Shown here piece by piece: positions 31,101 through 50,360 of a stretch of 64,000 nt of DNA. Position numbers and translations under genes: made by a program. Origin of the DNA: a virus; IMG/VR virus record IMGVR_UViG_3300047174_000111, positions 32,572-96,571 of that record; one strand, given 5' to 3'. The notes beneath the pieces were generated by a model. That model searched no databases, had not been told where the DNA came from, and worked only from the letters and a program-made list of their open reading frames with translations. The number at the start of each line of letters is the position of its first letter. The stretch's first letter is position 1.

Positions 31101-33188
31101 GCGGGCTATATCGCGGTCCACGCGCCCGACCCCGACAACAAGGGCGAGCGTCTGGTGGTTTACGGCGAGCACTACAAGAACGATGGGTCGACGACACCTC
31201 TCCGCGCCGGTTCGACGCTATCGGATGTGCGTCGCGCGGTTGCCGATTATGAACAGAAATACCAGCAGCAGCGCCCGCAGAACCAGAACGCGCCCAGCAG
31301 CAGCACGATCGGGGGCGCGACGAGCGGCCCGCGCGAGCTGCGTGATGCGCAGAACCTGGAGCCGAACCGCAAGGCCCTGATCGACAAGACCGTGGCCGCG
31401 CTCAAGGGCACGCAGGGCGGCCTGCAGACGCTGCGCGCTGGGCAGGACGGGCCAGAGATGCAGTTCCGTGGCGACGGATCGAACGACAAGGAGCACAACG
31501 ACGCGGCGGGCCAGTTCGTCGCGCATCTCCGCGACAAGCATCTCGCGTCCGGCGCGCCCCAGGGACAGGCGGTTCACAAGGCGCTCGACACGCTGTTCTC
31601 CAATGAAGGCCGCGTCCTGACCCGCAAGCAGGCGTTCGCCCAGCTGACCGGCTACACCAAAGAGGGTCAGGACCGGAACAAGCCGTCGATCCTGACGAAG
31701 CGGCCCGGGTTCGGATCGGCCGACAAAGCCGAGGTCGGCGCCGCGCTGAACGCCGAGATCGACCGCATCGTCAAGGACGCGGCGCCCAGGGATGACCGAG
31801 AGAAGGGCGCACTGCATCTCGCTGCATCGGTGATCGGCGTAGAGAAGCAGCTTCCCGACGACGTGATGCAGGCGGTCCACGCCAAGATCCGCGGCTCAAC
31901 GCCGACGACGGGTCCGGCCGAGACGGCGGGGGCAAGCAGCTCCGGCATCGCGGCGCCCAAGGCGCAGCCAGCCGGGCCGATCGCGAAGGAGCCGGACAGC
32001 ACCGACCCGGACAAGCTGGTCGAGAACGAGAACCCGCCGCATTTCGTGGCGAGCCAGCTTCGTGATTACGCGGAGGGTGAGGCGCGCGCGCTGCGCACCG
32101 ATCTGCGCCTGCGTCAGGCTGACCAGGCGGAAATCCTCATCCCGGCGATCGAGCATCTCGCGCGCGTCGTGGGCCACAGCCATGGGCTGGACGAGCAGAC
32201 CGCAGCGCGGGTCGCGGCGGACACGTTCCGCGCCACGGCCGCGGGCGGGGACTGGAACCGCGTTATGACGGCCGATGAGATCGCGAAGGGCAACCTGAAC
32301 ACGTTCCGCTACACGCTGCGGCGCAAGGCTGACGCCGAGAAGCTGAAGATGGAGGCCAACAAGTCCGCCGGGGCTGTGCCGCTCGGTAAGCTGCTCGACG
32401 ATCTCGACGCGCTGGCCAAGGCGTTCGACGGTGGAGATTTCAATCCAGATTTGCACCCACGGTTGGCCGCTGGTGAGCAGGGAGGTGGCGAGTTTGCTCC
32501 AAAGGGCGGTCATGGCGCTGGGGGTTTGGCGGGGCGGATCAGACAAGGGGCTGTCGAGGGATCGACCGATATCGTTGACAAGCAGGCCGCAGCTGCTGCG
32601 CGTGGCACCAGCCGCAAGGCGGTGCCGTGGTACAGTCCCGGCCGCGCAATCCCCGATGCCGGCAATGCGCTTGGAGGTGCATTCGCCTATGCCGGCGCCG
32701 AGAAGGCGATGCAGATCGCCGAGCGCTTCCTGCCGGCACCCTTGCGCACGGCCGCCGAGGTTGCGAGCGCGCCGGGATTGGTGGGCGGCGTCAAGGCGGC
32801 GCTCGGATTGGGCTTCAAGGGCGCCATCAAAGAGGGCGCGAAGGCAGCCGCGAAAACAGGGTTGGTCGGCGGTGCATCCGTCGCCGGCGGAACGCTGGGC
32901 GCCTTAGTAGGCACGAAACTGGTCGGCCACGAAGCGCCCGCCCCCGCCTACCACGACTCAGGCGAGGCGTTGGCCGAGAGCGCCGGGTCGCTCGCCGGCA
33001 GTTTCGCCGGCAGCGCCGCCGCGCTCGTGCCGGGCCCCGGCTGGCTAGTGGCGCCGACGCTCAGTGCCGCCGGCAGCTACGCGGGCGGTTTGGTGGCGCG
33101 CGGCGCGTACGACTGGTTCAAGGGCTACGACCAGAAGACCGTCGCGCGCGTCGCGCGCCGTTACGCCAAGCCTGCGACCAACCCATGA
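28155..33188 (+). CDS. 1677-aa putative internal virion polyprotein
   Basis: between protease and scaffold; three HPR/HD..G[RE]F peptides, LxK|A sites, glycine zippers, coiled coils. Confidence 0.75.
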   Translation: MPRPHFDATLIGELRNRVVAHNQRTPSALAKLGHVKRIYEKAYSGPTPHERALAKVDAHLNDLAKAGEFDDAEHPRGAHGRFSRTAAAKPGVSIPLPATQDEHQKLQQTNAGYRALTTDLLPTRHNEIIGGVVRDVGSAAAGGLLVAGLLRGRPGGAVRRGARWIGGMAGKYGLGIPVSLTAHGLTAGAGVTRAAIARGRGRPAPPDPSHDLAARISEWFGAHGQRIGAATADLSMGAASAAARAAVHVAGSTARTPGQARLRRVGAAAALAAVPALAIRSKIEDTQLDPAVIGRNIDAYSYRSVQKLAGDPNAEDLLKASFLRYPYVGGVARAVRTGAAAVGGAAAGALAGFGIHAATGAGDHARGNPNHDARGRFTSRDAAVSGGALLGGAAAGLGVYAALRSHNTAQLSRALARSSTKLARKLAAVRSETGIGSVPKMIAERDARVREMMDEEPFASRLKDAGASLQEPSGEFRVVNAKAYTRAKVNDHLASKLSQIDEFAIPNEVSGASKSMRDLRAKARTHVDPDIVAKQKVLEFVASATPKEFHDALATVPDEKVRQEIGSIFDKRQEWINAVDDQIAAHHEAIAQAEAEVKKTSQRAADAQVAADKASAAHEAAEGKAKAAAKKRFDAADKAFDDADEAHQTAISRLDDLKKQPTGVRLPKELGGAAVPKPSREATERSRSSIIEAVRSDARKKADKEIADARDAQERDIVHRHSRAVAAHTHMTHSSGAAVPDQAAAEARAVAAASVAHEQARDALNTAHRNLIETQQRHDAHVSITPLPSQRKDHTAATKALKAQIKQHQADLKAAHAAVSTTSADVTGAVQAMERQMRVAAASTGGPRLPRQMIGDLRLEVMRAARAAASPVDAFIRSPSAAALKQFASSAIGLAGATAAATGEGIKETAKKAFLTEDGSALHPGKAIASIGVATAATDAILDHGAHIRRALFGSDEEKESAKPLKAPKGFRTEHKVHPITGAGYIAVHAPDPDNKGERLVVYGEHYKNDGSTTPLRAGSTLSDVRRAVADYEQKYQQQRPQNQNAPSSSTIGGATSGPRELRDAQNLEPNRKALIDKTVAALKGTQGGLQTLRAGQDGPEMQFRGDGSNDKEHNDAAGQFVAHLRDKHLASGAPQGQAVHKALDTLFSNEGRVLTRKQAFAQLTGYTKEGQDRNKPSILTKRPGFGSADKAEVGAALNAEIDRIVKDAAPRDDREKGALHLAASVIGVEKQLPDDVMQAVHAKIRGSTPTTGPAETAGASSSGIAAPKAQPAGPIAKEPDSTDPDKLVENENPPHFVASQLRDYAEGEARALRTDLRLRQADQAEILIPAIEHLARVVGHSHGLDEQTAARVAADTFRATAAGGDWNRVMTADEIAKGNLNTFRYTLRRKADAEKLKMEANKSAGAVPLGKLLDDLDALAKAFDGGDFNPDLHPRLAAGEQGGGEFAPKGGHGAGGLAGRIRQGAVEGSTDIVDKQAAAAARGTSRKAVPWYSPGRAIPDAGNALGGAFAYAGAEKAMQIAERFLPAPLRTAAEVASAPGLVGGVKAALGLGFKGAIKEGAKAAAKTGLVGGASVAGGTLGALVGTKLVGHEAPAPAYHDSGEALAESAGSLAGSFAGSAAALVPGPGWLVAPTLSAAGSYAGGLVARGAYDWFKGYDQKTVARVARRYAKPATNP

Positions 33189-34893: not shown

Positions 34894-36399
34894 GTGAACA
34901 ACGTGGATACTTCCGCGACGCTCGACATCCTGCGGGAAGCTCTTGCCAAAGCCGCCGATCCGGTGGAACTTGCCAAGGCGGCGACCTTCGTCCAATCGGT
35001 CACGCCGACCGTCGGTCTGCAGCTCTATGACCTCGAACCGGCCGCGAAGAATCTCTACCCGGTCCTGACGCCGCTGCGGAATCGCATCCCGCGCGTCTCG
35101 GGCAAGGGAGGATCGCAGGCGAACTGGAAGGGCGTCACCGGCATCGACACCGGCTCCATCTTCGCCGGTGTGACCGAAGGCCGACGTGGCGCACTCATCT
35201 CCGTTGCGACGAAGGAATACTTCGCCGCGTATCGGACGATCGGCTCCGAGGCGTCGGTCACCTTCGAGGCCGATCTGGCCGCGGGCGATTTCGACAATCT
35301 GCGCAGCCGCGCCTCGATGTCGAACCTGCAAGCGCTGATGATCGCCGAGGAGAAGATCATCCTCAGCGGCAACACGACGTATCAGCTCGGCCAGACCCCA
35401 ACGCCCGTCTGCGTCGCGGCCAACACCGGCGGAGCACTCGCGGCGAGCACCACCTTCTCGGTCATCTGCGTCGCCCTGACCACGCTGGGCAAGGCGACGG
35501 CAACCGTGGCGACCGGCGTGGTCGGCGTGACGACCCGTCAGACAGCCGACGGTTTCACCGATACGTACAATGGCGGCTCGGCCATCAAGAGCGCCAACGG
35601 CACGGTCGCGACCGCCGCTGGGACCGCGACCAACTCCGTCGCGGCCGCGGTCACGCCCGTCCGCGGCGCGTTCGCCTACGCTTGGTTCTGGGGCGCGGTC
35701 GGCTCCGAGGTGCTGGGCGCGATCACCAACGTCGCCAACTACACCATCACGGGTGCTGCGACGGGCACACAGACGGCCGCGTCGCTGCCGGCGCTGGACT
35801 GCTCGACCAACTCGCTGGTGTTCGATGGCCTGCTGTCGATCGCATCGGGCTCGACGAACGGCGGCTACTACTATGCGGCGGCTCCGGGTGCCGGCCTCAC
35901 GCCGGACAACTCGGGCGGCATCATCGAGTTCGACACGGCGCTGCAGTGGTTCTGGGACAATCTGCGTCTCGCCCCGAGCCGCATCATCCTGTCGAGCCAG
36001 GAGATGACGTGGATCCGCCGCGCCATCCTGACCGGCAACGCCGCGACGCCGTCGAACGCCCGCTTCACGTTCTCGATGCAGCAGGGTCAGATCGTCGGCG
36101 GTGGTGCGCCCAAGGGCTACATCAACACCTTTGCCGCGGGCGGGGCGCCGGCCGAGATCCCGTTCGAGCTGCATCCCTACATGCCGCCCGGCAACGTCCT
36201 CTTCCTGACCGAGGACCTGCCCTACCCGATGAACAACGTCACGAACGTGATGCAGATCAAGGCGCGGCGCGACTATTACCAGATTGACTGGCCCCAGATC
36301 ACGCGCCAGTACCAGTACGGCGTCTACTCGGACGAAGTGCTGCAGCACTACTTCCCGCCGAGCATGGGGCTCATCACCAACCTGTCGCCCGTTCTGTAG
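34894..36399 (+). CDS. major capsid protein
   Basis: propeptide LAKA..LAKA; YDLE..AK.LYP..TPLRNRIPR; C-terminal RRDYYQIDWP...Y..GVY..EVL..Y.P..G.ITN; position. Confidence 0.85.
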   Translation: MNNVDTSATLDILREALAKAADPVELAKAATFVQSVTPTVGLQLYDLEPAAKNLYPVLTPLRNRIPRVSGKGGSQANWKGVTGIDTGSIFAGVTEGRRGALISVATKEYFAAYRTIGSEASVTFEADLAAGDFDNLRSRASMSNLQALMIAEEKIILSGNTTYQLGQTPTPVCVAANTGGALAASTTFSVICVALTTLGKATATVATGVVGVTTRQTADGFTDTYNGGSAIKSANGTVATAAGTATNSVAAAVTPVRGAFAYAWFWGAVGSEVLGAITNVANYTITGAATGTQTAASLPALDCSTNSLVFDGLLSIASGSTNGGYYYAAAPGAGLTPDNSGGIIEFDTALQWFWDNLRLAPSRIILSSQEMTWIRRAILTGNAATPSNARFTFSMQQGQIVGGGAPKGYINTFAAGGAPAEIPFELHPYMPPGNVLFLTEDLPYPMNNVTNVMQIKARRDYYQIDWPQITRQYQYGVYSDEVLQHYFPPSMGLITNLSPVL

Positions 36400-36410
36400 T
36401 CGCCTCGACT

Positions 36411-36444
36411 GGCCCGGATCACCACGATCCGGGCCGCTTCTCTT
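36411..36444 (+). terminator. hairpin after capsid gene
   Basis: GGCCCGGATC-ACCAC-GATCCGGGCC then pyrimidine tract. Confidence 0.6.
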
Positions 36445-36711: not shown

Positions 36712-37293
36712 GTGGCTGCGCCGCTCGACTTCTTCTCGCTGACCGACGCCAAGACCTATCTCGGCATCGCTCTGACCGACACGTCTCAGGACGCGCTGCT
36801 GGAGCTGATCCTGCCGTCCGCGACCCAGGCCGTGGTCGACCTGCTCTGCTGGGACCCGAACAGCCAGGAGGTCAACGAGCGCTACAACGGCACCGGCGCA
36901 CCGGCGATCGTGGTCAACCGGAAGTGCATCTCCGCGGTCGCATCCGTCGCGATCGAGAACCCGATCACCGGCACGCAGAACGTGCTGGACCCGTCGCACT
37001 ATTTTTTCGACGGGCAGAAGATCCTGTCGCGGCGCGGTCCTTACCCGCGCGGCCAGAAGAACATCATCGTCAGCTACACGGCCGGCCTGGTACCGATCCC
37101 GGCCAGCATCGTCCTGGCCGCCAAGATGACCCTCAAGGCGATGTGGAGCGGCAAGGACTTCGAGCAAAACGCGACAGGATCGGAAGTGCCCGACGTCGAA
37201 AGCCTGACGTTCTGGCCGACCGGGCCGGGCGCAGTGCCGCCGCAGGCCCGCAGCCTGCTCATGAAATACCGCATCGAGATGCTGGTCAGCTGA
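36712..37293 (+). CDS. head-tail adaptor (gp6-like)
   Basis: LTDAKTYLGI...DALL..I..A...VSYTAG...P..I..A...LL.KYR. Confidence 0.85.
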   Translation: MAAPLDFFSLTDAKTYLGIALTDTSQDALLELILPSATQAVVDLLCWDPNSQEVNERYNGTGAPAIVVNRKCISAVASVAIENPITGTQNVLDPSHYFFDGQKILSRRGPYPRGQKNIIVSYTAGLVPIPASIVLAAKMTLKAMWSGKDFEQNATGSEVPDVESLTFWPTGPGAVPPQARSLLMKYRIEMLVS

Positions 37294-37347
37294 CGCGGGG
37301 ACCACGCCGGTTGCTCCAAGGCGTGAGATAATCTCGGGAGACCGGCG

Positions 37348-38988
37348 ATGCGCCGCTTTCTGCTCACGTCCACCTGTTGTCTTGCGCTGCTCGCCGCCGC
37401 TGACCTCGCCGAGGCGCAGACGCGCGGTAGTGCGAGTCTGCCTGCCGCGACAACCGCCCAGCTCTACGGCGGATCGGGCGCGGCGGGGTCGGCTTCCGTG
37501 GTGGGCGTCGGAACGGGCCTAGCGCTGTCGGGCGGCTCGCTCTACGCGACTGGCACGAGCACGACGCCGCTTGGTTCGACGTGCTCCGCGACGGCGCCGA
37601 GCCGGTCTGGGGACGTGACCACGGGGCTCGCGTCCCTGGCAGGGGCGCGAGTGGATATCTGCGCGGGCGGCAGTCAGGCGGGTGAGTTCTCCGGCTCGGG
37701 CACGCTGACGCTCGGGGCGTCGGGTCAACATGGTATTATTCAGACGACGGGCACGTCTGGCCTATACCTGAACACACCCGCCTTAACGTCTTTCACGGAA
37801 ATTCAACAAGCCGGGACCGCCCTGATCGATTTCGGCGAGTCGGTTCCCGCAATTTATCCGCATGTTCCTTTGTGGTTCGGAAACATTGTTTGGACTAACA
37901 CCCACGACGTTGCCCCGCTTTTTCAGAACGTCCAGGTTTCTGGCACGACATCAGCTTCTTCCGCGGGCATGGGTTTATGGATGCACCAGTCGGACAACTC
38001 GTCAAACACCGGCGGCAATCAAGCGGGCCTTTACGAATTGTTGTCCGTGGACGCACAACCCGGCGGCGTCCCAAGCAGCATGTTCGGCACGCGCAATGCG
38101 GCGCAGATAGGGTTCACACTCAACGTGCCGTCAGCAAATCTCGCCGCGACGGAATATGGCGGTATGTTCGGTCCGTTCTGCAATCTTCTGGCCACCGATG
38201 GCCCAGCAAATAACACCCTCGGCGGTTCGTGTTTTGGTCTGAACCCAATTGCTCATGCCGGACCGAACATTTACGCTCAGGAGATTAGCGTCGGCGAGGC
38301 GGACAACTGGATTGAGTCTGGAGCAACGGTCCTAGACAGCTTTGGCTGGAAAGTCGCGTCCTCAAACGGCACTGTCTCCGGCGCGGTTGGTCATCAAGCG
38401 CAGCGTGACGATGCCGCGTTACTTATCGGACAGTCTTACATTAGCGCTCCTGGCCAAGGGTGGCGCAACGCGTTTCAGATCGGCTCCTACGCTGGCTTTT
38501 TTGCTGGTGCGACGGACGGCAATCTGATGACTGCTAGATCTCATGTGGACAATCTCACCGCAGACCCGCAAATACTCGCTAATGGGCTCTACTTTCCAAA
38601 CCTGACTATCACAAACCAAGCAATAAATTTCGGCGGCAAGTTTATCGTCACTGGGGCAGGTGGCACTCAGGCCACGTCCTTGACCACCAATGGCGGCGAA
38701 TTTGCGCATCGCAATGCCATCTCGGACGCGAATTACACAGCTACCTCGAATGACGACGTCATCGCCTACACGACCTTAACAGCTTCCCGCACACTAACTA
38801 TCCCGTGCGCCTCGCTAGGCACTGCAACCAACCCTCAGAAGATTATCGTCAAGGACGAGAGCGGTTCGGCTGGCACCTTTCCTATTTCTCTCGCAGCCAC
38901 GATCGACGGATCGACCACGAAAGCCATCAACACCGCCTACGGCTCGATGCGGCTGTACGCCAATGGAGCGGCCTGCTTCACCTGGTGA
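37348..38988 (+). CDS. signal-peptide-bearing beta-rich fibre-like protein
   Basis: MRRFLL..LALLAAADLAEA|Q; C-terminal Y.....D.VI......TLTIP...IIVKDESG...TIDG..T..IN..YGS fibre-type domain. Confidence 0.7.
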   Translation: MRRFLLTSTCCLALLAAADLAEAQTRGSASLPAATTAQLYGGSGAAGSASVVGVGTGLALSGGSLYATGTSTTPLGSTCSATAPSRSGDVTTGLASLAGARVDICAGGSQAGEFSGSGTLTLGASGQHGIIQTTGTSGLYLNTPALTSFTEIQQAGTALIDFGESVPAIYPHVPLWFGNIVWTNTHDVAPLFQNVQVSGTTSASSAGMGLWMHQSDNSSNTGGNQAGLYELLSVDAQPGGVPSSMFGTRNAAQIGFTLNVPSANLAATEYGGMFGPFCNLLATDGPANNTLGGSCFGLNPIAHAGPNIYAQEISVGEADNWIESGATVLDSFGWKVASSNGTVSGAVGHQAQRDDAALLIGQSYISAPGQGWRNAFQIGSYAGFFAGATDGNLMTARSHVDNLTADPQILANGLYFPNLTITNQAINFGGKFIVTGAGGTQATSLTTNGGEFAHRNAISDANYTATSNDDVIAYTTLTASRTLTIPCASLGTATNPQKIIVKDESGSAGTFPISLAATIDGSTTKAINTAYGSMRLYANGAACFTW

Positions 38989-39050
38989 GGTGGCTTGCGG
39001 CGGGGACCAAGCGCCGCGCCATCAGCAGCCGAGACAGTCAGGGGCGCGCC

Positions 39051-39353
39051 ATGGGGCAGATGTTCACCCAGGATTACTCCTGCAGCGTCGGAGCAACCGC
39101 GCAGCAGGTCTGGACGACGGCGCAGCTGCCGATCGGGATGAGCTATATGCGCCTGTTCAACGCATCCCCCGTTGGCGGCGCGACGATCTGGTACTCGCGC
39201 AACGGCCAACCCGCGGCAGCGAACGCCCCGGGGTCGCTGTCTTTGGCCCCTGGCCAGGATGAGACCTGGAAAGTGCCGCAGCCCCCTCCGTTCAACAACT
39301 TGTCGGCCATCGCCGTGGGCGGCACCGGATCTTTGACGGCGGAAGTGGGATGA
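39051..39353 (+). CDS. small beta-rich virion-type protein
   Basis: follows late motif; ATGA-coupled to next gene. Confidence 0.65.
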   Translation: MGQMFTQDYSCSVGATAQQVWTTAQLPIGMSYMRLFNASPVGGATIWYSRNGQPAAANAPGSLSLAPGQDETWKVPQPPPFNNLSAIAVGGTGSLTAEVG

Positions 39354-40450
39354 ATCTCCGCCTCAAGCCCCGCGCGGCGGCCGCGCTACTGGCTATCGGA
39401 GCCGCTCTGGCGACCGACCAAGCGGCGCGCGCGGCTGACATCGCGACAATCTATAACGGACCCGCCGGAGGCCCGCTGGAGCGTATCCCTGGGGTCGTCA
39501 TTATGTGCCCCTCGATTGACGGCAGCGTGACTGCGGTCCCGTGTGTCTTCGGGTCGGGCGGGTCCGGCGGCTCAGGCGGTCCCGTAACGCAATCCGGCAG
39601 CTGGACCGTTGGCCTGACGAGCGGCACCACCGTCGGCCTCTCGGCCGGCTCGGCCGTGATCGGCGGCGTGACGCAGAGCGGCTCATGGTCGGTCTCGCTC
39701 GGCGGCACTTTGCCGGCTTTCGCGGCCACGCCAACCTTCAACCTCGGGACCGCACCGTCGCTCGCGATTTCAAACTTCCCGGCCACCCAGGCGGTGTCAG
39801 GCACCGTCGGACTATCCGGGACATTGCCAGCCTTCGCGTCGCCGCCCACCGTGAACCTTGGGAGCAGTGTGACGCTGGGCGGGACGCTTCCGGCCTTTGG
39901 CGCGACGCCCACGTTCAACCTCGGAACGGCGCCGTCGCTGACGATCGGGAATTTCCCATCGACTCAGACCGTTGCTGGCACTGTGTCGTTAGGTTCCGCG
40001 ATCCCCAGCGGGACTAATACGATTGGTGCTGTACAAGGCCCTACTGCTTCCGGCTCACAGGCGCAAAACCCACCCATCCAGATGGGCGGGGTGGATGGCA
40101 GCGGCAATGTGCGGACGGTGCTGACGGACACGAGCGGGCGCGTCATTACAATGCCCGGAAATTCACCCGGCACGGACAGCAGCGCCAACGCACCATCCGG
40201 GTTATCGACAACGCTGACGAGTTTTACCGTCACAACGCCGGGAGCTTACTACGTGCAAAACCAGTCTGCCGCACCCATCCAAGTTGATCTTTGCACAAGC
40301 GTCGGCGTGAACTGCACGATTGTCCTGCTTGCGTCAGGGGGCGCGGCAGGGGCGCAGGGCGCAGACACGACACCACCGATACCTTGGTTCACCGGCTACG
40401 TGGCTGTGGTGGGCGCGTCAGGTTCACAGATCGCGGCGAGGCACAACTGA
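39350..40450 (+). CDS. signal-peptide-bearing repeat fibre-like protein
   Basis: MNLRLKPRAAAALLAIGAALA..ARA|A; GTLPAF..PT.NLG x3, NFP.TQ.V.GTV x2. Confidence 0.7.
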   Translation: MNLRLKPRAAAALLAIGAALATDQAARAADIATIYNGPAGGPLERIPGVVIMCPSIDGSVTAVPCVFGSGGSGGSGGPVTQSGSWTVGLTSGTTVGLSAGSAVIGGVTQSGSWSVSLGGTLPAFAATPTFNLGTAPSLAISNFPATQAVSGTVGLSGTLPAFASPPTVNLGSSVTLGGTLPAFGATPTFNLGTAPSLTIGNFPSTQTVAGTVSLGSAIPSGTNTIGAVQGPTASGSQAQNPPIQMGGVDGSGNVRTVLTDTSGRVITMPGNSPGTDSSANAPSGLSTTLTSFTVTTPGAYYVQNQSAAPIQVDLCTSVGVNCTIVLLASGGAAGAQGADTTPPIPWFTGYVAVVGASGSQIAARHN

Positions 40451-42870
40451 TGACGACGATCGTGATCCGTGCGTTGCTGCTGGCGGCGCTGCTGTGCTCG
40501 TCTGCGTTGGCTGGACAACCCCCCGTCGTGCCAGCATCCCCTGGTGTTGCCGGCATTCTTGCCCCATCGCCAGTCCCGCGCGTCATCAACAGCGGGGTGC
40601 ACCCGCAATCAATGTTGCGCACGGCCATTTCTCAAGTGGAGCAAGGCAACCACGTCATTGTTTGTCATGTCGGCGACAGCGTTGGGACCGGACCGGATGT
40701 TCTGAATGCTACCAGTGGAACAACTGCCGTAGCTGCCGCATCGGTCAACGCTGTGGATGGGATGTGGTATCAGGAGATCAGGGCGTTCCTTGATCAAAAC
40801 CCCGGCGTCGTATTTGATTTTTTGAACCGCGGCATTCCGGGTTTAGGCACGTCCAGTTACCTTGGGAACGCTTACTCCCAAGCCAGCACCAACGGCCAGT
40901 TGTGGTACACCAGCGCGGCAAACTGGTATCAGTTTGTTGCGCTAAACCCGCAAACCGGCTACGTCCCGTCTCCTATTGCTTTGTCGCACGGTTGCGACAT
41001 CATTATCATGGCGTTTGGTCTGAATGACTCTTGGAACCTCTCTCCTGTAACCCTTTGGTCAATTAAAAACATACATTGGAACACCTCCCCATTTTCCTCG
41101 CGGCCGGGCATCATATGGATAACGAGTCCGAGCGCCAATCCGAATGCCGGGCCGCCCTACAGCTTGCCCAACTACGTCGCAGGCTACATCGCGAACGGTT
41201 CGCTCGTTCGCTCTGCGGCACAGGTCGGCGCATCAGGGTTTAGTAGCGCATTCGCAGCGCCTGTCGGCACCGAAGGTGTAATTGACTATGGTCGGTTTTT
41301 TCAAATGGCCGTTTTGGGTAAAGATTATCAAGATCAAGTATCAACCAATAATTTATCCGCGCTCCAAGCGGCGATAGGCGGCAGCACATACACGTTCCAG
41401 AACGGCAACGCTACGGGTTCGATTTCCGGCTCAATCTATACGGTCACGGCTGTAAACTCAGGCACGGTGAAAGAGGGGCAGATAATTGCGTCTGCCACGG
41501 CGCGGACACAAATCACAGGTTTTGTTAGCGGCAGCGGAACCTACGGCGGCCCTGGTCAATACACCATCGACACATCGCAAACACAGTCAAGTTTTACGAG
41601 TAACCTTCAAGATACGGTGGTGTTGCCCGGAGTAGACGGGGATTTTCAGGTCGGCGGATGCTTTCTGGGGCTCATGACAAGTTTTGTCGGACAGAACGGT
41701 ATTTCGCTCGGTGTGTCGTCCATGAACGGCAACTCACAACCCCTGTCAACTTTTCAAGTTACCGCCACAAGCACGACCGGAATATTACTTAATTACAACG
41801 CAGGAAGCACTATTGCCCTATCGCGAGGCTTCTCGGTCACGTCGCTGCCGGATTTTTGCGTCAGCATGAGCGTGAAACAAAACTTGGTAAGCTTGACGAC
41901 AAACGGAAAAAACTGGACAAACAATTTTATTAAGGCAGAAGCCCCGTTTAACCCTTACATAACACTGCTTAGCTCAGTGACAGCGCCAGTTACATTGACG
42001 TTCACATCCTGGGCGGCTGGGGCTGCGCACAGTTACAACCCTATTTTTTCAGAAGGCCTTGCCTACGGCCAGGGCACGGTATCGACCGCGATCCCGAGCG
42101 CCACGACCAACGCCGGAAGCGCGGTCATCAATTTCGCCTCTCTGCCCACGCCTCCCGGTGGCGGTGCCACGCTGGCCGGATTGCAAATCAGTGATGTCCC
42201 GGTCCCGACTGCTATCCCTGCCGGGACCACGGTGTTGTCAATGAGCGGCGCCATCGGTGGCGCCGGATCAATCACGATGAGCAACAACGCAGCTTATCAG
42301 ATATGCGGCACGCTGCCTTGCACGACCGATGTGATTGCGTTCGGAAACACCCTGGGGTCGAGTGGCGGGAATTTCATAAACCACCCCGCCTCTCCCGCGC
42401 TCAACTACGCTTTGGCGAGCGCGCTTCAGGCGTCCGACCTTTGCCTGATATGCTACGCCACGTCTGGCGCAAATCAGGCGTATAGCACGGTGGTTGTAAC
42501 GACCGGCGCGACAACCGTGGCAACTCCGGGCCTTTTAGGGCTGACGCTCAACCCATCTGGGACGATTGCGGCGCACACCACCACGCTGCCAACCAACCCG
42601 CAGAACAATCAACGCTTTACCCTGCGCTCGACGCAGACCGTAACGGCCGAAACGGTGCAGGTGTCCAGCACGCCGAGCGGGCAGAGCATATCGTCGGCAT
42701 ATACAGCAGGAGGGACGCTCACGCCCAGCACGCCGATCACTCTTACCTACAACCAAAGTTTGAACCTTTGGGCACCTCGGCGGCGGCGGTATGCCGCGGA
42801 TGGTCGCCGAAGGTCTAGAAAACGTACCCCTCAGCTCGCAGGCACGGAGAAAAACGCACAACATGGTTGA
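40450..42870 (+). CDS. signal-peptide-bearing SGNH/GDSL hydrolase-like protein
   Basis: MTTIVIRALLLAALLCSSALA|G; VGDSV, NRGIPG, FGLND, distant NFINHP. Confidence 0.75.
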   Translation: MTTIVIRALLLAALLCSSALAGQPPVVPASPGVAGILAPSPVPRVINSGVHPQSMLRTAISQVEQGNHVIVCHVGDSVGTGPDVLNATSGTTAVAAASVNAVDGMWYQEIRAFLDQNPGVVFDFLNRGIPGLGTSSYLGNAYSQASTNGQLWYTSAANWYQFVALNPQTGYVPSPIALSHGCDIIIMAFGLNDSWNLSPVTLWSIKNIHWNTSPFSSRPGIIWITSPSANPNAGPPYSLPNYVAGYIANGSLVRSAAQVGASGFSSAFAAPVGTEGVIDYGRFFQMAVLGKDYQDQVSTNNLSALQAAIGGSTYTFQNGNATGSISGSIYTVTAVNSGTVKEGQIIASATARTQITGFVSGSGTYGGPGQYTIDTSQTQSSFTSNLQDTVVLPGVDGDFQVGGCFLGLMTSFVGQNGISLGVSSMNGNSQPLSTFQVTATSTTGILLNYNAGSTIALSRGFSVTSLPDFCVSMSVKQNLVSLTTNGKNWTNNFIKAEAPFNPYITLLSSVTAPVTLTFTSWAAGAAHSYNPIFSEGLAYGQGTVSTAIPSATTNAGSAVINFASLPTPPGGGATLAGLQISDVPVPTAIPAGTTVLSMSGAIGGAGSITMSNNAAYQICGTLPCTTDVIAFGNTLGSSGGNFINHPASPALNYALASALQASDLCLICYATSGANQAYSTVVVTTGATTVATPGLLGLTLNPSGTIAAHTTTLPTNPQNNQRFTLRSTQTVTAETVQVSSTPSGQSISSAYTAGGTLTPSTPITLTYNQSLNLWAPRRRRYAADGRRRSRKRTPQLAGTEKNAQHG

Positions 42871-43023
42871 CCTCCACCCCATCTACTCCGGTGCCGCCGA
42901 GCTTTTGCGGATTGAACCCACGTGGTTCGGCGAGGCGGGGAGCGGGTTGGTTGCTGCCGGTCATCGGGGCGAGATAGGTGCTTACATGCTTGACGACGGA
43001 GCTGTTACAAAATTTAGGCTGAG

Positions 43024-43377
43024 ATGACCACGCTCTACGCCGATCGCACCAAGGAGACGGCCCAGGTCACCGGCACCGCAGCGGTTCCGCTTGCGGGCGC
43101 GGAGAAGGGCTTCCGGTCATTTGCCGGCGCTGGCCTCGCCAACGGCCAGGACACGTATTTCTGCATCTCCGACCCGGTCACCGGCGACTGGGAGATCCAG
43201 CGCAACACCTACGCCGCCAGCACCAACACCCTGAACCGCGCCGCGGCCGCACCCTATGGCGTCGTCTCCAGCTCCAACGGCAATGCCCTGGTGAACTTCC
43301 AGGGCAACGCCTGCGACGTGTTCATGACGATCCCGGCTGTCGTGATCAACGCCCTGCTCGCGCTACCTGGGGCCTGA
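43024..43377 (+). CDS. small virion structural protein
   Basis: ADRTKET...GT...LAGA..GFRSF...WEI motif typical of fibre-attachment N-termini. Confidence 0.7.
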   Translation: MTTLYADRTKETAQVTGTAAVPLAGAEKGFRSFAGAGLANGQDTYFCISDPVTGDWEIQRNTYAASTNTLNRAAAAPYGVVSSSNGNALVNFQGNACDVFMTIPAVVINALLALPGA

Positions 43378-43378
43378 T

Positions 43379-44074
43379 TTGGACGCCTGGCTCGGCTATG
43401 GCGCGGTTGGCGAGGCGGCGGGGTCGGACGCCGACCGTCCGCCTGACGCACAGCCGACAGCGGCCACCGTCCCCGCGACCGTCGCGACCACGGGCGTGCT
43501 GGGGCGCGTCGCGGCCGCCACGCGGCGCATGGGCACGCTGGTGATCCTGCGCAATCCCACGTCCGGCTCGGGGCCGGTTCAGAGCCCATACCCACCCACG
43601 CTGGATGGCCCGGTGCTGGCCCAGGCCTACCCGGGTGCTGCCACGCTCATCGCGATCAATGCCGACGAGGCGCTGGGCCAGATCATCGCGGGCGACGAGA
43701 TCACCATCGCCGGCGTGCCTTACGTGGTGATCGACGGCGGATCGAGCAGGCCGTTCAGCGCCGCCACGCCCGGCTTCGACGGCATCCGCATCTCGCCCCC
43801 GCTCGCCGCGCCCGCGGCCGCCGGCACACCGCTCAGCTTCGTCTGGGAGAGCGATATCTACGTCTACGCGCGCATCACGTCGTTCCCCGGCACGCTGGTC
43901 GATGGGTCGCTCGTGCTGATGGAGGACCTGCAGGTCACGATCCCGGCGCAGGGAATCTCCAGGCCGGCGAACAACGCCAAGCTGATCATCGGCTCTGACA
44001 TCCGGTCGGTCGTGACCAGCCTGCCGATCTACGCCAACGGCCAGATCGTGCGCTGGCAGCTCCAGGCCCGCTGA
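43379..44074 (+). CDS. head-closure/joining-like protein (start uncertain)
   Basis: C-terminal VDGSLV..D..V...P....LII...VV...P......W.LQAR. Confidence 0.6.
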   Translation: MDAWLGYGAVGEAAGSDADRPPDAQPTAATVPATVATTGVLGRVAAATRRMGTLVILRNPTSGSGPVQSPYPPTLDGPVLAQAYPGAATLIAINADEALGQIIAGDEITIAGVPYVVIDGGSSRPFSAATPGFDGIRISPPLAAPAAAGTPLSFVWESDIYVYARITSFPGTLVDGSLVLMEDLQVTIPAQGISRPANNAKLIIGSDIRSVVTSLPIYANGQIVRWQLQAR

Positions 44075-44126
44075 CGCGGGGACCACGCGAGAGGCTGATC
44101 CGACCCGCTGATGCGGGGGATTGAGC

Positions 44127-45161
44127 GTGGCGGTTAAGGCATTCGACGGCTTCGACAATTACCTCGGCACGAACGACCTGCTGCAACGGCAGGGCTTTCT
44201 CCAGTGGATCACGGGCAACGTCGTCAGCTGGCGTACCGGTCTGCTGGGATACGGGAATTGCGCCTATCTCAACGCCCCCGGCGGACTGACCGGATCGCTC
44301 GCCACGCCCCTGGGAACTTTTTTCATGGGCTGCAGGCTTCAGTCTTATGCCGGGAATCAGTTCGGCGTCACGATCATCGACGAGCTGTCGGGCGGCGTCC
44401 AGTTCCAGGTCCAATTCTATCCCTCTGGCCAGATCGTCGTGTACCGCAGCACGGGCGGCACGCAGGTCATGATCGCGGAGAGCGGGCTCAACTCGTTCGT
44501 CCCGACGGCGACGAACTACATCGAGGTCGGCGGCACGATCAGCTCGACCGCGGGCACCGTCACGGTCCGCGTGAACGGCCAAGTGATCTCTGGATGCACC
44601 TGCACCGGAGTGAACAACCAGGCGACTGCCAACGCCTCGATGAGCGGGCTCGACATCGGCGCCGGAAGCTATCTGTCGGTCGACGACTTCTATCTTTGCG
44701 ACAGCACGACCGGATCAGGCGTCGTGCCGGGCAACACCTTTCTCGGTGACGTGAAGATCCAGACTGTCAACACCACGGGCAACGTCTCGGTCGCCTGGAG
44801 CCCTCTCGCGAACACGAACTGGCAGGAAGTCTCCGAGGTCCAGGGCGACGGCGATAGCAGCTATAATGCTACAGGCACGGTCGGCGCCACGGACAGCTTC
44901 ACGTTCGGATCGGTCACCGCCGTCACGAACCAGATCATCGCGGTCCAGGTCATGGGCATGTACCGCAAGGATGACGCATCGACCCACACGGTGCAGCAGC
45001 AGCTCACGTCGAGCAGCACGACCGTCGAGGGGACGACGGTGTCGATCCCCAACACCTACATCTTCCTCGCCGATCTCTGGAGCGCCGACCCGAGCACCGG
45101 CGCGGGCTGGACGCCGAGCGCCGTCAACTCGCTCAAGGCCGGCTATACGCTGGTGAGCTGA
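44127..45161 (+). CDS. virion structural protein (lectin-like beta)
   Basis: FDGFD...YIEV...VRVNG...DDFYLCD...FLGDV. Confidence 0.7.
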   Translation: MAVKAFDGFDNYLGTNDLLQRQGFLQWITGNVVSWRTGLLGYGNCAYLNAPGGLTGSLATPLGTFFMGCRLQSYAGNQFGVTIIDELSGGVQFQVQFYPSGQIVVYRSTGGTQVMIAESGLNSFVPTATNYIEVGGTISSTAGTVTVRVNGQVISGCTCTGVNNQATANASMSGLDIGAGSYLSVDDFYLCDSTTGSGVVPGNTFLGDVKIQTVNTTGNVSVAWSPLANTNWQEVSEVQGDGDSSYNATGTVGATDSFTFGSVTAVTNQIIAVQVMGMYRKDDASTHTVQQQLTSSSTTVEGTTVSIPNTYIFLADLWSADPSTGAGWTPSAVNSLKAGYTLVS

Positions 45162-47935: not shown

Positions 47936-48742
47936 TCATGCGGCCGGCTCTTTCACTTCGGCCACTCTGCTGGGCATGAGTTTCGCGAGCTTGGCCAGAC
48001 CCGCTGCCGTCACCTTAACCTGTTCGCACACGCGCTCGCTCCCATCCGGCTTGAGGATCGTCGCCACCTTGTGCTCGAGGTCTCCGGCGTTCGTACGGCT
48101 CTGATACCCGAGGTAATTGGCCGAGCCGGCGCGCTTGTAGATCCAGCTGTTGCGGTTGAGGAAATCAAACAGCTCTTTGGGCCGCACTTGCAGCGCTTTG
48201 GCCGCCTCGGTGATCGACAGGCTGCCGTCGGCCGTGGCGATCCGGTCCAGCGCTTCGGCCTTGGGTTGGATGGCGGCGATCTGGACCTTCTGCCGCTCGA
48301 CGGTCGCCTGGAGCACCTGCAGCGCGCGCAGGGCCAGTTGCTCCGGCGTCTCCTCCGGCGCGGCCACCATGTAGCCGCCGGTCTTGCGGATCGCGGGAAG
48401 AACCTCGTGGGTGATCCACCGCTTGAACCGCTTGGCCGCCGGCTTCCGGCTGGTGAGGATCAGGCTGTAGAGGCCGGCCTCGGTGATGATTGTGGGCATC
48501 GCGCCGATCACACCTAAGTCTTTGAAATTGGCGCCCTCGATAATATCGAGGGTATATTTTTCGTCCTCGTCGAGCCTTCGAGCGGCGTCCGATGGGTTTC
48601 CGATCTCCAAAATTTTACAAACGTCAACGAGGAAAAAGCCGGGGTTCCCGTCGCGGGAGGTGGCGCGCATGGAGGCACCCTCGAAGTCGAAGATGCTCGG
48701 CTCGGTCGGTGCGGCGCTCTCGTTGGTGGTGATATGGCTCAC
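47936..48742 (-). CDS. ant: antirepressor (Bro-N + ANT/KilAC)
   Basis: FDFEG..DVC..L...ITEAGLYSLI..SRKP.AKRFKRWIT.EVLP.IRKTG.Y; PKA..DRIA..DGS.SIT.AAK. Confidence 0.92.
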   Translation of the reverse strand: MSHITTNESAAPTEPSIFDFEGASMRATSRDGNPGFFLVDVCKILEIGNPSDAARRLDEDEKYTLDIIEGANFKDLGVIGAMPTIITEAGLYSLILTSRKPAAKRFKRWITHEVLPAIRKTGGYMVAAPEETPEQLALRALQVLQATVERQKVQIAAIQPKAEALDRIATADGSLSITEAAKALQVRPKELFDFLNRNSWIYKRAGSANYLGYQSRTNAGDLEHKVATILKPDGSERVCEQVKVTAAGLAKLAKLMPSRVAEVKEPAA

Positions 48743-48905
48743 GTTGAGGAATCCTCGTCAGTTGCGGGTGAAAGACACATCGAGTGTAGGGACATCGGGG
48801 GTTGTCGCAACATTATAATGTGTCCGAGGTGTGGTCGCGGCGGTATGGCCGTGGTGGGGATGCCTTTGGGAAAGGGGGTAGCGTTTCGCGACCCCCTTGG
48901 GCGCC

Positions 48906-49361
48906 TCACCCCGCCGGCGCCCGCATCAGGGTGAGATCGCGCGCCACGCCGGCGCAGAGTTGGGTCTCAAGGGGGCAGTCGCTGTAGGCCAGATCCAGAT
49001 CCGCGCGTGTCCATGGCTCCCACGCGCGGCACCAGGCGATGCCATCGAGCTTCACGCGGAGCCCTGCGAGGGTCGTGGCCTGGGTCGCTGCGATGCGCTC
49101 CACGATCTCAGCGCTGAGCGCGTTCAGTGCCTGGGCCTCAGCCGCGTCGGGGTCGCCATCGGCCGCACCGGCCGCGAGCCACGCCGCCTGCTCCGCCGCA
49201 CTGGCCTCCCTCAGCAGTCGGCCGAGGTGCAGCAGATCGGCATCGCTTGCCGCTCCGCTCGGGCCCGTGGCCTGAAAAATCGCCGCCAGCGCGCCAACCG
49301 CGCCGATGTGGTTGAGAAATCCTCGGCGAGATGGGGTATGGTCGATGTCAGCCTGTCGCAT
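48906..49361 (-). CDS. hypothetical protein with RRxFL N-terminus
   Basis: GGAG RBS; SRRGFL; ATTLAGLRVK motif. Confidence 0.7.
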   Translation of the reverse strand: MRQADIDHTPSRRGFLNHIGAVGALAAIFQATGPSGAASDADLLHLGRLLREASAAEQAAWLAAGAADGDPDAAEAQALNALSAEIVERIAATQATTLAGLRVKLDGIAWCRAWEPWTRADLDLAYSDCPLETQLCAGVARDLTLMRAPAG

Positions 49362-49443
49362 GGGTCATCTCCGTGTGCGGGTTAGGCCGGGTGCGGGAGC
49401 TTACACCTTCCCGCCCGGCCGACTTCGTGATAACATCAACGTC

Positions 49444-49656
49444 ATGAGAAATGCAACTGGTGATAACACGAAAAGGCGGCGGCCGCCGGTGACGGGTCAA
49501 CTGATTGGTGTCCGGGTTCAACCGGATGGCATCAAAATGTTGGATGCCTGGATCGTGTCGCAGCCGGACGTTCCGTCCCGTCCCGAGGCTATCCGTCGCC
49601 TCATGCTGCTCGGGCTGCACGTCGCCTCGGAGCCTTCGAAGGGGCAGCCCGCATGA
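49444..49656 (+). CDS. ribbon-helix-helix regulator
   Basis: IGVRVQ.....LDAW..Q....SRPEAIRRL. Confidence 0.75.
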   Translation: MRNATGDNTKRRRPPVTGQLIGVRVQPDGIKMLDAWIVSQPDVPSRPEAIRRLMLLGLHVASEPSKGQPA

Positions 49657-49880
49657 TCTTCGTGCTGGTGATCGCGCTGCTGCTGAAAGTCGTCTTCTGG
49701 CTCGTGGCGGCGCACCCGATCCTGTTCTATGGGTGGCTCGGCGGTCAGCTTCTCCTCCCGTCCGATGAGCAGATGGCCGAAACGCAGAAACCCCCACCGA
49801 CCGAAGCCAATGGGTAAAGCACTGCAGCAATCTTCACGGGACGTGCACGCGGATCGGTGGCCAGCCAAAGATGAGGTTTC

Positions 49881-50360
49881 ATGATGCGGATCTTGATCGG
49901 GCTGATTTTCTTGGGAATGTCTCCGATTTGTGGTTGCGTCGCATATTCAACTTACAGACCGCAGTCTCCAGAAATTACTAAAGCCATATCTGATGACTGG
50001 GACCGGAACTATGAGCATTTTAACGCTCTAAAGACGGCCGTAAGTAACGCTGACGTACCGAAGAACTTTGAGTCGAAACTGGCGAAATATTTTGAAGAGA
50101 CCCTCATCGACCCGGACTCGCGCCGCGTGACGTTCGGTGCGCGTCCGTTCGGTGGTCTTCTGTGCGGCGATGTAAATGCAAAGAACACTTTTGGAGGATA
50201 TACGGGGCGTCAGCCATTTTATGTCGCTTTTGACCAAAAAGGCGAAATCGTCAGCGGCGTAGTTCTTAATAAAAACTACGAAAGAGTGTATCGCGAGGCT
50301 ACTATTGCGGATAGCCTTTACGAGCAAAGCCAGTTCCTGAAAATGTGCGGATCGATCTAA
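49881..50360 (+). CDS. exported/lipoprotein-like moron
   Basis: low GC; hydrophobic N-terminus with Cys; L.DPDS...CG.VNAKN.FGGYTG. Confidence 0.75.
   Translation: MMRILIGLIFLGMSPICGCVAYSTYRPQSPEITKAISDDWDRNYEHFNALKTAVSNADVPKNFESKLAKYFEETLIDPDSRRVTFGARPFGGLLCGDVNAKNTFGGYTGRQPFYVAFDQKGEIVSGVVLNKNYERVYREATIADSLYEQSQFLKMCGSI

Follow-up and report, generated by a model that had tools for sequence, protein, structure and literature searches.

Predicted secretion signals and paired cysteines in three fibre-like proteins encoded beside a separate podophage-type fibre anchor in a lambda-like phage

In the textbook account, tailed phages are assembled wholly in the cytoplasm. The question raised by the locus described here is why three genes for leader-bearing, fibre-like proteins, designated P1, P2, and P3, are all present between the head-tail adaptor and head-closure genes of such a phage, and whether their products join the virion or act apart from it. 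The window analyzed is a stretch of 64,000 nucleotides (positions 32,572 to 96,571 of IMG/VR record IMGVR_UViG_3300047174_000111; record length, 96.5 kb) from a tailed, 97-kb phage, which is lambda-like and long-tailed. The placement of the three genes, as claimed in the original prediction, was confirmed by the assignment of the flanking genes to phrog_442 and phrog_161 (Table 1). The phage looks temperate, it also encodes a leaderless central fibre J, and its tail genes contain a second accessory island, with a lipoprotein-like gene and, on the other strand, an Ant anti-repressor gene. Because secretion signals and paired cysteines are found at the locus beside a signal-less anchor, part of the host-recognition gear of this phage probably matures in the periplasm, not in the cytoplasm.

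Table 1. Features of the locus, with positions numbered from the first letter of the window
Feature	Position	Strand	Remarks
Head-tail adaptor gene (upstream flank)	36712..37293	+	phrog_442, E 4e-20; Pfam Phage_connect_1, E 1.7e-4
Late-region motif GCGGGGACCA	37295..37304	+	44 nt before P1 start
P1, 546 aa	37348..38988	+	Leader residues 1-23 (37348-37416), ..LAEA/Q
Late-region motif, second copy	39000..39009	+	42 nt before start of small ORF 39051-39353
Small ORF, 100 aa, no leader	39051..39353	+	GC3 0.82, phage-core-like; stop overlaps P2 start (ATGA)
P2, 366 aa	39350..40450	+	Leader residues 1-28 (39350-39433), ..AARA/A
P3, 806 aa counted from ATG at 40450	40450..42870	+	Leader residues 1-21 (40450-40512), ..SALA/G
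Possible small ORF (uncertain gene), 53 aa (78 aa from 42791)	42864..43027	+	Stop overlaps anchor-gene start (ATGA)
Stub (tail-fibre anchor encoded by itself), 117 aa, leaderless	43024..43377	+	Composed almost wholly of the domain found at the N-terminus of podophage tail fibres
Head closure Hc1 gene (downstream flank)	43379..44074	+	phrog_161, E 2.5e-6; no late-region motif of its own

A leader was defined by three elements within the first ~30 residues: a basic n-region, a hydrophobic core of about 10-15 residues without charges, and a small-x-small site that is followed by a residue other than Pro. As claimed earlier, P1, P2, and P3 open with predicted signal peptides of the canonical Sec type, each of which shows all three elements, the maximum 10-residue hydropathy being 2.3-2.6 and the small-x-small site lying at the usual distance. 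When the whole record was scanned crudely for leaders in six frames, no full-length late genes passed other than those of P1, P2, and P3 and a lipoprotein-like gene at 49881. The leaders were kept in homologues as a feature and not as a sequence, being present in 17 of 19 homologues of the P1 core, in 25 of the 43 P2 homologues, and in 3 of 3 for P3, both homologues of which have one. The closely spaced cysteine pairs reported earlier were located at C278/C295 in P1, C53/C65 and C315/C322 in P2, and C619/C624 in P3, and further pairs bring the totals in the mature parts to six, four, and eight Cys, respectively. The P1 pair is near-invariant (conserved in at least 90%), both P2 pairs recur among homologues, and C72/C182 and C665/C668 of P3 do so as well. 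Furthermore, the mean number of Cys in the P2 family was 3.56 in the leader-bearing members compared with 0.56 in the leaderless ones, and the number was even and non-zero in 21 of the 25 leader-bearing members. Taken together, the export and oxidative folding of P1-P3 are well supported as predictions, because leaders recur in relatives in all three families and track cysteines in the P2 family, and the periplasmic inference made originally stands as far as predicted export and disulfides are concerned.

The fibre-type domains attributed to P1-P3 were substantiated by shaft and tip modules that they have in common with ordinary leaderless phage fibres, the leader occupying the place of the N-terminal virion anchor. 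In P1, the leader is followed by an N-terminal part that is rich in Gly, Ser, and Thr, then by a conserved core (residues ~120-450) and a C-terminal tip module (445-546). The tip module, for which 1144 matches were obtained, co-occurs elsewhere with Mtd_N (12 of 100 members), T4_gp9_10_N, Beta_helix, Collagen, and Lipase_GDSL_2, and genuine Lipase_GDSL_2 domains are present in two of its relatives. Residues E317 and D354 of the core are invariant, and the core may be an enzyme that acts through this Glu and Asp. Peptidase_S74 is present in one distant relative of the P1 core, and a Pfam search of P1-P3 themselves gave no match to it. P2 continues after its leader with the C53/C65 pair and a Gly-Ser linker, its shaft repeats are of the type LPAFAATPTFNLG / NFPATQ, and its C-terminal domain contains C315/C322. 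Relatives of P2 were found at 27 viral loci, mostly with leaders, and at two loci (L007 and L008) leaderless relatives containing P2-type repeats are encoded directly after gpJ-like genes.

P3 is composed of an N-terminal alpha/beta domain, a beta-rich insert of ~340 aa, an INHP motif (643-646), a fibre-tip domain (~667-775), and an Arg-rich C-terminal tail of ~35 aa, which is missing from the homologues. Its C-terminus matches an Mtd_N fibre at another locus (L026), and one homologue also has tail-fibre-type repeats. The esterase label given earlier is motif-based in the case of P3: SGNH-like motifs are present in order (GDS 75-77, NRGIPG 126-131, and GLND 190-193) and, together with INHP, are invariant in the three sequences of the family, but neither a family-profile match nor a PDB match was obtained, the search against Pfam giving zero matches even at E 10, including to the Lipase_GDSL/Lipase_GDSL_2 profiles. 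In an hhalign comparison with 10 genuine SGNH domains, blocks I-III were in register, but with a Prob of 4.8% and an E of 0.008. An Asp is lacking at His-3, block V is placed beyond the ~340-aa insert, and a lead from the ESM Atlas had a score of 0.76, which is in the chance range. The two structure models that were made were both of unusably low quality, and the AF2 model of P3, with a pLDDT of 36.9, was too poor for fold judgement. As a whole, P3 may be an SGNH-type esterase.

The new element at this locus is the stub, which, as judged from sequence comparison, corresponds to the anchor domain found at the N-terminus of podophage tail fibres, here encoded by itself. Its residues 1-105 matched residues 1-97 of gp61 of Roseobacter phage CRP-6, a protein of 614 aa annotated as 'putative tail fiber protein', with an identity of 41% (E 5e-16), and it also matched the N-terminus of gp58 of Methylophilales phage Venkman, the identity to podophage fibre N-terminal domains being 35-43% over ~100 residues. 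In Venkman, gp58 is anchor-only (162 aa) and is followed by gp57, indicating that the anchor can be a polypeptide separate from the fibre body. The fibre bodies of CRP-6 and Venkman have no leaders and few cysteines, and these phages are short-tailed, with the fibre adjoining portal or tube genes, whereas the present phage is long-tailed and has its anchor among connector genes, next to leader-bearing fibre-like neighbours. The same domain heads fibres of 781 and 748 aa at L142 and L143, respectively, where they are encoded between the major head protein and the phrog_442 adaptor. A stub does not imply exported partners, because stand-alone stubs at three other loci (L137, L140, and L141) have neighbours without leaders. 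Its position next door here tilts the interpretation toward P1-P3 joining the virion at lysis and away from free secreted factors. A comparison of the mature N-termini of P1-P3 revealed no anchor-like or common docking sequence and no resemblance to other proteins of this phage.

The late motif reported at 37295 and 39000 was found at both positions. Counting GCGGGGACCA and its variant GCGGCGACCA together, the 96.5-kb record contains 7 copies, each of which lies on the + strand, within the late region, and 22-46 nt ahead of a start codon, with zero copies on the opposite strand or within the first 58 kb. The translational coupling of three genes was likewise recovered, in a chain in which the small ORF at 39051-39353 is linked to P2 by the ATGA overlap and P2 to P3 by a TGATG overlap. 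A consensus scan detected neither a sigma-70-like promoter upstream of P1 nor a terminator-like site after P3, and the number of promoter-like sites within P2 and P3 was near the shuffle expectation. The motif, the coupling, this lack of a promoter and a terminator of its own, and the essential, motif-less Hc1 gene downstream argue, only indirectly, for late expression of the cassette. The GC3 values of P1, P2, and P3 were 0.67, 0.73, and 0.62, respectively, compared with 0.78-0.95 in neighbours. Low GC3 is confined to the distal parts, and the small ORF, the stub, and the leader-proximal segments of P1 and P2 have phage-like values, a compositional pattern that is the one of fibre-tip exchange. 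Among 80 capsid-related loci, none was found to contain the cassette. Its composition and its absence from capsid-relatives, both missed in the original prediction, fit often-exchanged receptor-binding modules and equally acquired cargo.

We propose, with a probability of roughly 40%, that the segment 37295-43377 is an accessory split head/neck fibre module, the exported distal parts of which dock on the virion at lysis. All genes of the module would be transcribed together with the late genes. In the cytoplasm, the leaderless anchor would be mounted on the connector region of the particle, and P1-P3 would pass the inner membrane via Sec with removal of their leaders, acquire disulfides by the host Dsb system, and remain in the periplasm until needed, as stable and probably trimeric proteins that bind or modify glycans. 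The destruction of the envelope at lysis would mix the two pools, so that the exported parts could dock on the anchor and form head/neck fibres. P1-P3 would then be three interchangeable distal fibre or enzyme modules, and their C-terminal parts may have undergone recent swapping, which is common in host-range modules. The lack of a docking sequence common to the mature N-termini counts against the split fibre, as does the location of the stub downstream, not upstream, of the exported genes. Extra fibres are also not strictly needed in the presence of the leaderless central fibre J, and the composition of the cassette and its absence from the 80 capsid-relatives suit acquired cargo just as well. 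No paper describing such a route was found.

The main rival reading, considered somewhat less probable, is that P1-P3 are exported and disulfide-bonded and never enter the particle, serving as soluble late factors that deacetylate, depolymerise, or bind glycans of the envelope or matrix. They would act on nascent periplasmic polysaccharide or, after lysis, outside the cell, freeing progeny or destroying receptors on debris and neighbours. Such free factors would be in line with the export predicted from leaders and cysteines, the lack of a virion anchor or common docking motif, the enzymes suggested by the SGNH-like blocks of P3 and the invariant Glu/Asp of the P1 core, and the stand-alone stubs elsewhere that have no leader-bearing neighbours; the cassette would also be dispensable for assembly, because it was not found in capsid-relatives. 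However, P2 seems to be a pure shaft-plus-tip binder with no enzyme-like part, virions would face competition for receptors from unattached binding proteins, and surface glycans would be out of periplasmic reach until the outer membrane fails. Free action would, in addition, leave the adjacent stub and the fibre-tip GC3 pattern unexplained.

The lom and bor genes of lambda are morons within the late operon that encode leader-bearing envelope proteins and have an atypical composition, and morons of the classical type come with a promoter and a terminator of their own and with expression in the lysogen. P1-P3 resemble lom and bor in having leaders, in lying inside the structural operon, and in their atypical composition, but, rather than small proteins of the outer membrane, they are large and fibre-like. 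It is unlikely that the cassette is a lysogenic-conversion island of this kind, expressed from the prophage and altering the lysogen surface or excluding superinfecting phages. The GC3 below that of neighbouring genes, the absence from the relatives, the other accessory island of this temperate-looking phage, and an Acetobacteraceae prophage (L032) whose tail operon has leader-bearing relatives at its cargo end, close to an integrase-like gene, would agree with it. Nevertheless, the consensus scan gave neither the promoter nor the terminator, the cassette lies on the late-gene strand with the same motif and translational coupling, Hc1 has to be transcribed through or after it, and even in L032 the start of the first leader-bearing gene overlaps the stop of a tail-fibre gene. 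Least probable is that the hydrophobic N-termini of P1-P3 remain uncleaved, with the proteins folding in the cytoplasm like ordinary fibres or being tethered by SAR-like signal anchors until the holin fires. The hydrophobic cores are rich in Ala/Gly/Ser/Cys and somewhat SAR-domain-like, and the P1 leader starts with M-R-R-F-L-L, a minimal twin-arginine-like pattern, but small-x-small sites lie at the usual distance in all three proteins, leaders are kept across distant homologues and replaced by a different N-terminus in leaderless ones, and the leader-cysteine correlation would be hard to explain without an oxidising compartment.

Partial precedents exist for fibre-like proteins that are exported and for esterases that end on the particle. 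The mosaic adhesive trimer (MAT) fibres of Bdellovibrio bacteriovorus are phage-tail-fibre-like trimers, each with a signal peptide, that work outside the cytoplasm, and the family has a beta-rich domain, which is conserved and ~130 aa long, after the leader and, in one subfamily, an S74 chaperone domain (PMC10769870). Such fibres can thus fold after export, although MAT fibres, compared here by description, are bacterial predation adhesins and are not phage-encoded, unlike P1-P3. In a cultured phage, the Cellulophaga podophage phi46:3, four consecutive large late genes (gp079-082) annotated 'structural protein' have Sec-type leaders, the label being an annotation by similarity to gp85-87 of phi18:3 (record KC821622); their products have no sequence similarity to P1-P3 and few or no cysteines, and the host belongs to Bacteroidota. 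The gp84 of phi24B is a NanS-type esterase that decorates the capsid and binds through DUF1737 (bioRxiv 10.64898/2026.04.10.717836). Like the P3 candidate, it and SGNH tailspikes are esterases encoded in or near head genes, and they end on the particle. In contrast to P3, for which the esterase call is motif-based, phi24B gp84 has no signal peptide, a term that is absent from that report.

If proteins of the P1-P3 type join virions, host recognition by many environmental phages would depend on host Sec, Dsb, and post-lysis docking, and soil phages would gain oxidatively hardened, swappable host-recognition gear. The prediction of receptor-binding proteins would be affected, because ORFs with leaders that lie in structural operons are usually set aside as cargo, and so would the production and engineering of such phages and particle survival outside the cell. 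The locus offers a testable pairing of a separate anchor domain with three exported modules at a head/neck locus of a long-tailed phage. If P1-P3 instead stay free, they would represent unnamed families of phage-encoded periplasmic factors that bind or modify glycans, the P1 tip module alone having more than 1,100 relatives.

The small ORF at 39051-39353 had no match in the cultured phages searched and a weak match to phrog_22789, and its product might conceivably be a partner or chaperone.

The three fibre-like proteins P1, P2 and P3 each open with a Sec-type leader, in which a basic n-region and an uncharged hydrophobic core are followed by a small-x-small site (AEA/Q in P1, ARA/A in P2 and ALA/G in P3, the slash marking the cleavage position). 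The original prediction had described these leaders together with specific cysteine pairs, two copies of a late motif and translational coupling, and all of these sequence-level statements were correct. The mature parts contain 6, 4 and 8 cysteines, respectively, all in neighbouring pairs. By simple rules and comparison among homologues rather than a trained predictor, leaders were called in both homologues of P3, in 25 of 43 homologues of P2 and in most of the P2-like ORFs across 27 IMG/VR loci; an exhaustive HMMER search with P1 gave 1,144 relatives, and leaders were present in 17 of the 19 relatives having the central domain in common. Within the P2 family, cysteine content follows the presence of the leader: leader-bearing members have a mean of 3.56 cysteines in the mature part (an even, non-zero count in 21/25), and leaderless members have a mean of 0.56 (none in 9/18). 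Furthermore, C278/C295 of P1 is retained by 90% or more of the core relatives, the N- and C-terminal pairs of P2 are conserved in position among homologues, and, of the P3 pairs, C72/C182 recurs in the two homologues and C665/C668 in one of them. A leader that persists amid diverging sequence and travels with paired cysteines gives these proteins the look of genuinely exported, disulfide-bonded ones, and for this reason we consider the export of P1–P3 highly probable.

The genes lie in a late region encoded on the + strand in the order protease, 1,677-aa protein, scaffold and major capsid protein, followed by the genes listed in the table up to the 346-aa protein, and then by a gpM-like protein, Neck1, tail terminator, tube-like protein, an island with an opposite-strand Ant anti-repressor, tape measure, a gpL-like protein and the lambda-type central fibre J. 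The window comprises bases 32572-96571 of a 96,571-bp IMG/VR virus record whose G+C content is about 65%. Several late genes have relatives in phages of Caulobacter, Brevundimonas, Roseobacter, Pelagibacter and Methylophilales and in an Acetobacteraceae MAG, from which we infer a Gram-negative, probably alphaproteobacterial host.

Features of the late region around P1–P3 (window positions)
Feature	Position	Strand	Family or remark
Late-region motif GCGG[GC]GACCA	25453, 37295, 39000, 44076, 45768, 50378, 56202	+	seven copies
Major capsid protein	34894-36399	+	phrog_13692
Hairpin with T-rich tail	36410-36436		directly 3' of major capsid gene
83-aa ORF		+	between capsid and adaptor genes
Head-tail adaptor	36712-37293	+	phrog_442
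P1	37348-38988	+	leader at 37348-37416
Small ORF	39051-39353		between P1 and P2
P2	39350-40450	+	
P3	40450-42870	+	Arg-rich extension at 42766-42870
Other-frame small ORF	42791-43027		53 or 78 aa
Stub (117-aa ORF)	43024-43377	+	directly before Hc1
Head closure Hc1	43379-44074	+	phrog_161
346-aa protein	44121-45161		phrog_2448, function unknown
Second accessory island	47936-50360		within tail genes
Ant-type anti-repressor	in the island	-	phrog_130, E 2e-71
Membrane-like 54-aa ORF	49653-49817		
Lipoprotein-like 159-aa protein	49881-50360		phrog_2320, GC3 0.53

All copies of the motif GCGG[GC]GACCA in the record are intergenic and confined to the late region, each at 22-46 nt upstream of a start codon and often immediately behind a stop; the opposite strand and the initial 58 kb of the 96.5-kb record contain none. 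To our knowledge, the motif agrees with no known promoter consensus; it may act as a late promoter, as an activator site or as a leader element of the mRNA. The two copies to which the prediction had pointed (GCGGGGACCA, at 37295 and 39000) precede P1 and the small ORF, and the following copy occurs only 3' of Hc1. A consensus scan found no sigma-70-like promoter upstream of P1 and no terminator-like site 3' of P3. Because of this spacing and the lack of such signals, the transcription of Hc1, a gene required by the phage, seems to be shared with P2–P3 or to pass through them, which suggests late expression of P1–P3. The small ORF, P2 and P3 overlap start-to-stop (ATGA, TGATG), and each is preceded by a Shine-Dalgarno-like purine run.

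At the level of modules, P1–P3 are fibre-like. The C-terminal ~100 residues of P1 form a widespread tip module that elsewhere follows Mtd_N (12 of 100 scanned proteins), T4_gp9_10_N, Beta_helix or pectate-lyase, Collagen, BppL_N or an endosialidase N-terminal extension and, in two proteins, genuine Lipase_GDSL_2 domains. The LPAFAATPTFNLG and NFPATQ repeats of P2 also occur in leaderless ORFs directly 3' of gpJ-like genes (L007, L008). A 406-aa Mtd_N protein encoded in another locus (L026) has a C-terminus that matches the last ~110 residues of P3, and the P3 homologue P0002 carries the familiar tail-fibre repeats NLSDL..AR.NLGLG; the C-terminal domains of P1 and P3 show no similarity, and a single common module was rejected. 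Leaderless relatives of all three proteins have a virion-type N-terminus at the position of the leader. Searches of Pfam and PHROGs with P1–P3 gave no matches, as did blastn and tblastn searches of 50,697 cultured phage records with P1, P2, P3 and the small ORF, IMG/VR scans with P1 alone, P3 alone or the P3 alignment, and two scans of JGI metagenomes for members of the P3 family. Among 401 sampled alphaproteobacterial genomes, the P3 family was found in none and the P1 family in one, the prophage-bearing MAG on which the search was centred, so that both families are sporadic there and not housekeeping.

P3 may be an esterase. The GDS, NxGxxG, GxND and distal HP blocks of P3 occur in the correct order and are invariant across three homologues, whereas P3 matched nothing in Pfam even at E 10, sequence searches of the PDB using the profiles of P3 and P1 and the N-terminal domain of P3 gave none or chance matches only, and the P3 profile aligned to ten genuine SGNH domains from alphaproteobacterial genomes with blocks I-III in register at a probability of 4.8%. 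With the profile tests failing, P3 was rejected as a proven SGNH esterase, and an SGNH identity is kept as a working hypothesis at slightly better than even odds. The P1 core has the invariant residues W182, R249, E317 and D354 and matched no Pfam family or solved structure. AlphaFold2 models on shallow alignments were too low in confidence for fold comparison (mean pLDDT 36.9 for P3 and 47.3 for P1), and the ESM Atlas gave sub-threshold leads only.

Leader-bearing P2- or P1-like genes were also found within structural modules of unrelated phages, for which our gene calls are crude and rest on GC3 and length. Such a gene lies directly upstream of the major head protein in L016, and in L004, L005 and L013 such genes have a phrog_5902 gene on one side and on the other a 585-aa phrog_332 gene (head-tail adaptor in PHROGs), which we take as portal-like from its size and position. 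In L010 and L032, they stand behind the tail-fibre gene of prophage-like elements bearing baseplate-type genes; in L032 (7986-14687, Acetobacteraceae MAG contig CAIUPC010000584.1), five consecutive leader-bearing genes follow, the first of which is P1-like with NLSDL..NLGLS fibre repeats and overlaps the stop of the fibre gene with its start. Lysis-like and integrase-like genes lie further on in L032, assigned by eye as were the baseplate-type genes. Four consecutive genes annotated as structural proteins in the cultured Cellulophaga phage phi46:3 open with Sec-type leaders. Phage-like trimeric fibres with signal peptides are found in bacteria as the Bdellovibrio MAT fibres (PMC10769870), and our search of the literature yielded no account of tailed-phage fibres exported through Sec.

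The history of the cassette was evaluated by composition and distribution. GC3 is 0.67, 0.73 and 0.62 in P1, P2 and P3 versus 0.78-0.95 in 18 other late genes, and this dip is uneven: values like those of the phage core are seen over the initial ~300-450 nt of P1 and P2 and in both the small ORF (0.82) and the stub (0.87), and a foreign look is confined to the distal parts. The distal 64% of P2 has 76% identity to another leader-bearing protein whose N-terminus differs. None of P1, P2, P3 and the stub was present in 80 viral loci sharing the capsid protein (39-53% identity), and the stretch between the genes for the capsid and the presumed tube measures ~2-2.5 kb in the ten of these loci examined versus 10.3 kb here. 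Because of the GC3 pattern, the match of distal P2 and the absence from the 80 loci, the module is lineage-specific, with tips that were probably exchanged recently. The motif copies at 37295 and 44076 were rejected as insertion boundaries, as the essential Hc1 falls inside the interval.

The stub matches, over residues 1-105, the first ~100 residues of annotated tail fibres of cultured podophages at 35-43% identity, for example those of Roseobacter phage CRP-6 (gp61, 614 aa; pairwise E 5e-16), CRP-603 and Pelagibacter phage HTVC023P, and Venkman gp58 (162 aa), behind which the tail fiber is encoded as a gene of its own. Fibres of 397-781 aa headed by this domain occur in IMG/VR, and in L142 and L143 one of them sits between the major head protein and an adaptor of phrog_442, the adaptor family common to these loci and the window. 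One further locus (L139:4217-8380) encodes three tandem paralogous fibres of ~460 aa each, all headed by this domain. The stub is therefore a leaderless anchor domain with almost nothing attached.

Its head/neck locus is one in which related anchor domains bear complete fibres, and three anchorless fibre-like proteins precede it. Our best reading, to which we give a probability of about 0.4, is that P1–P3 and the stub form a split head/neck fibre, in which the stub would be mounted in the cytoplasm, P1–P3 would cross into the periplasm, become oxidised and be kept there, and docking would take place when lysis mixes the compartments. Against this, the stub gene comes downstream of those for the exported proteins, the stubs that stand alone in L137, L140 and L141 lack leader-bearing neighbours, J already supplies a fibre, and a common docking motif at the mature N-termini of P1–P3 is not present. 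Free secreted factors, exported likewise but never part of the particle, are the main rival reading and somewhat less probable. The cassette pattern is typical of the evolution of host-range genes; acquired cargo could look alike. Lysogenic-conversion cargo is improbable, as the motif, the coupling and the missing transcription signals of its own count against it. N-termini that are non-functional or SAR- or Tat-like, to be set against leaders that persist among homologues, appear very improbable.

Several minor features accompany the split-fibre candidates. The P1 leader opens M-R-R-F-L-L, a minimal twin-arginine-like pattern, and many leader-bearing homologues likewise open MRR(F/L); the hydrophobic core of the leader contains two cysteines in P1 and one in P3, and lipoprotein signals were rejected for both, as a canonical lipobox was absent by inspection. 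Kinship of the small ORF with an 86-aa ORF near the P2-like genes of L004 was also rejected (E 0.55). At its C-terminus, P3 has an Arg-rich stretch of ~35 aa (RRRRY..RRRSRKR..) that is absent from both homologues, and the other-frame small ORF ends in an ATGA overlap with the stub start; this may be either the scar of a junction or a genuine coupled gene. The strong GC-rich hairpin behind the capsid gene resembles the attenuating terminator often present there. Relatives of the 346-aa protein, an unexplained additional connector-region protein, are encoded in 108 records of cultured phages (Salmonella, Caulobacter, Brevundimonas) and likewise in records that bear the name Tetraselmis viridis virus S20/SI1. 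Finally, the accessory island with its Ant-type anti-repressor suggests a temperate lifestyle.
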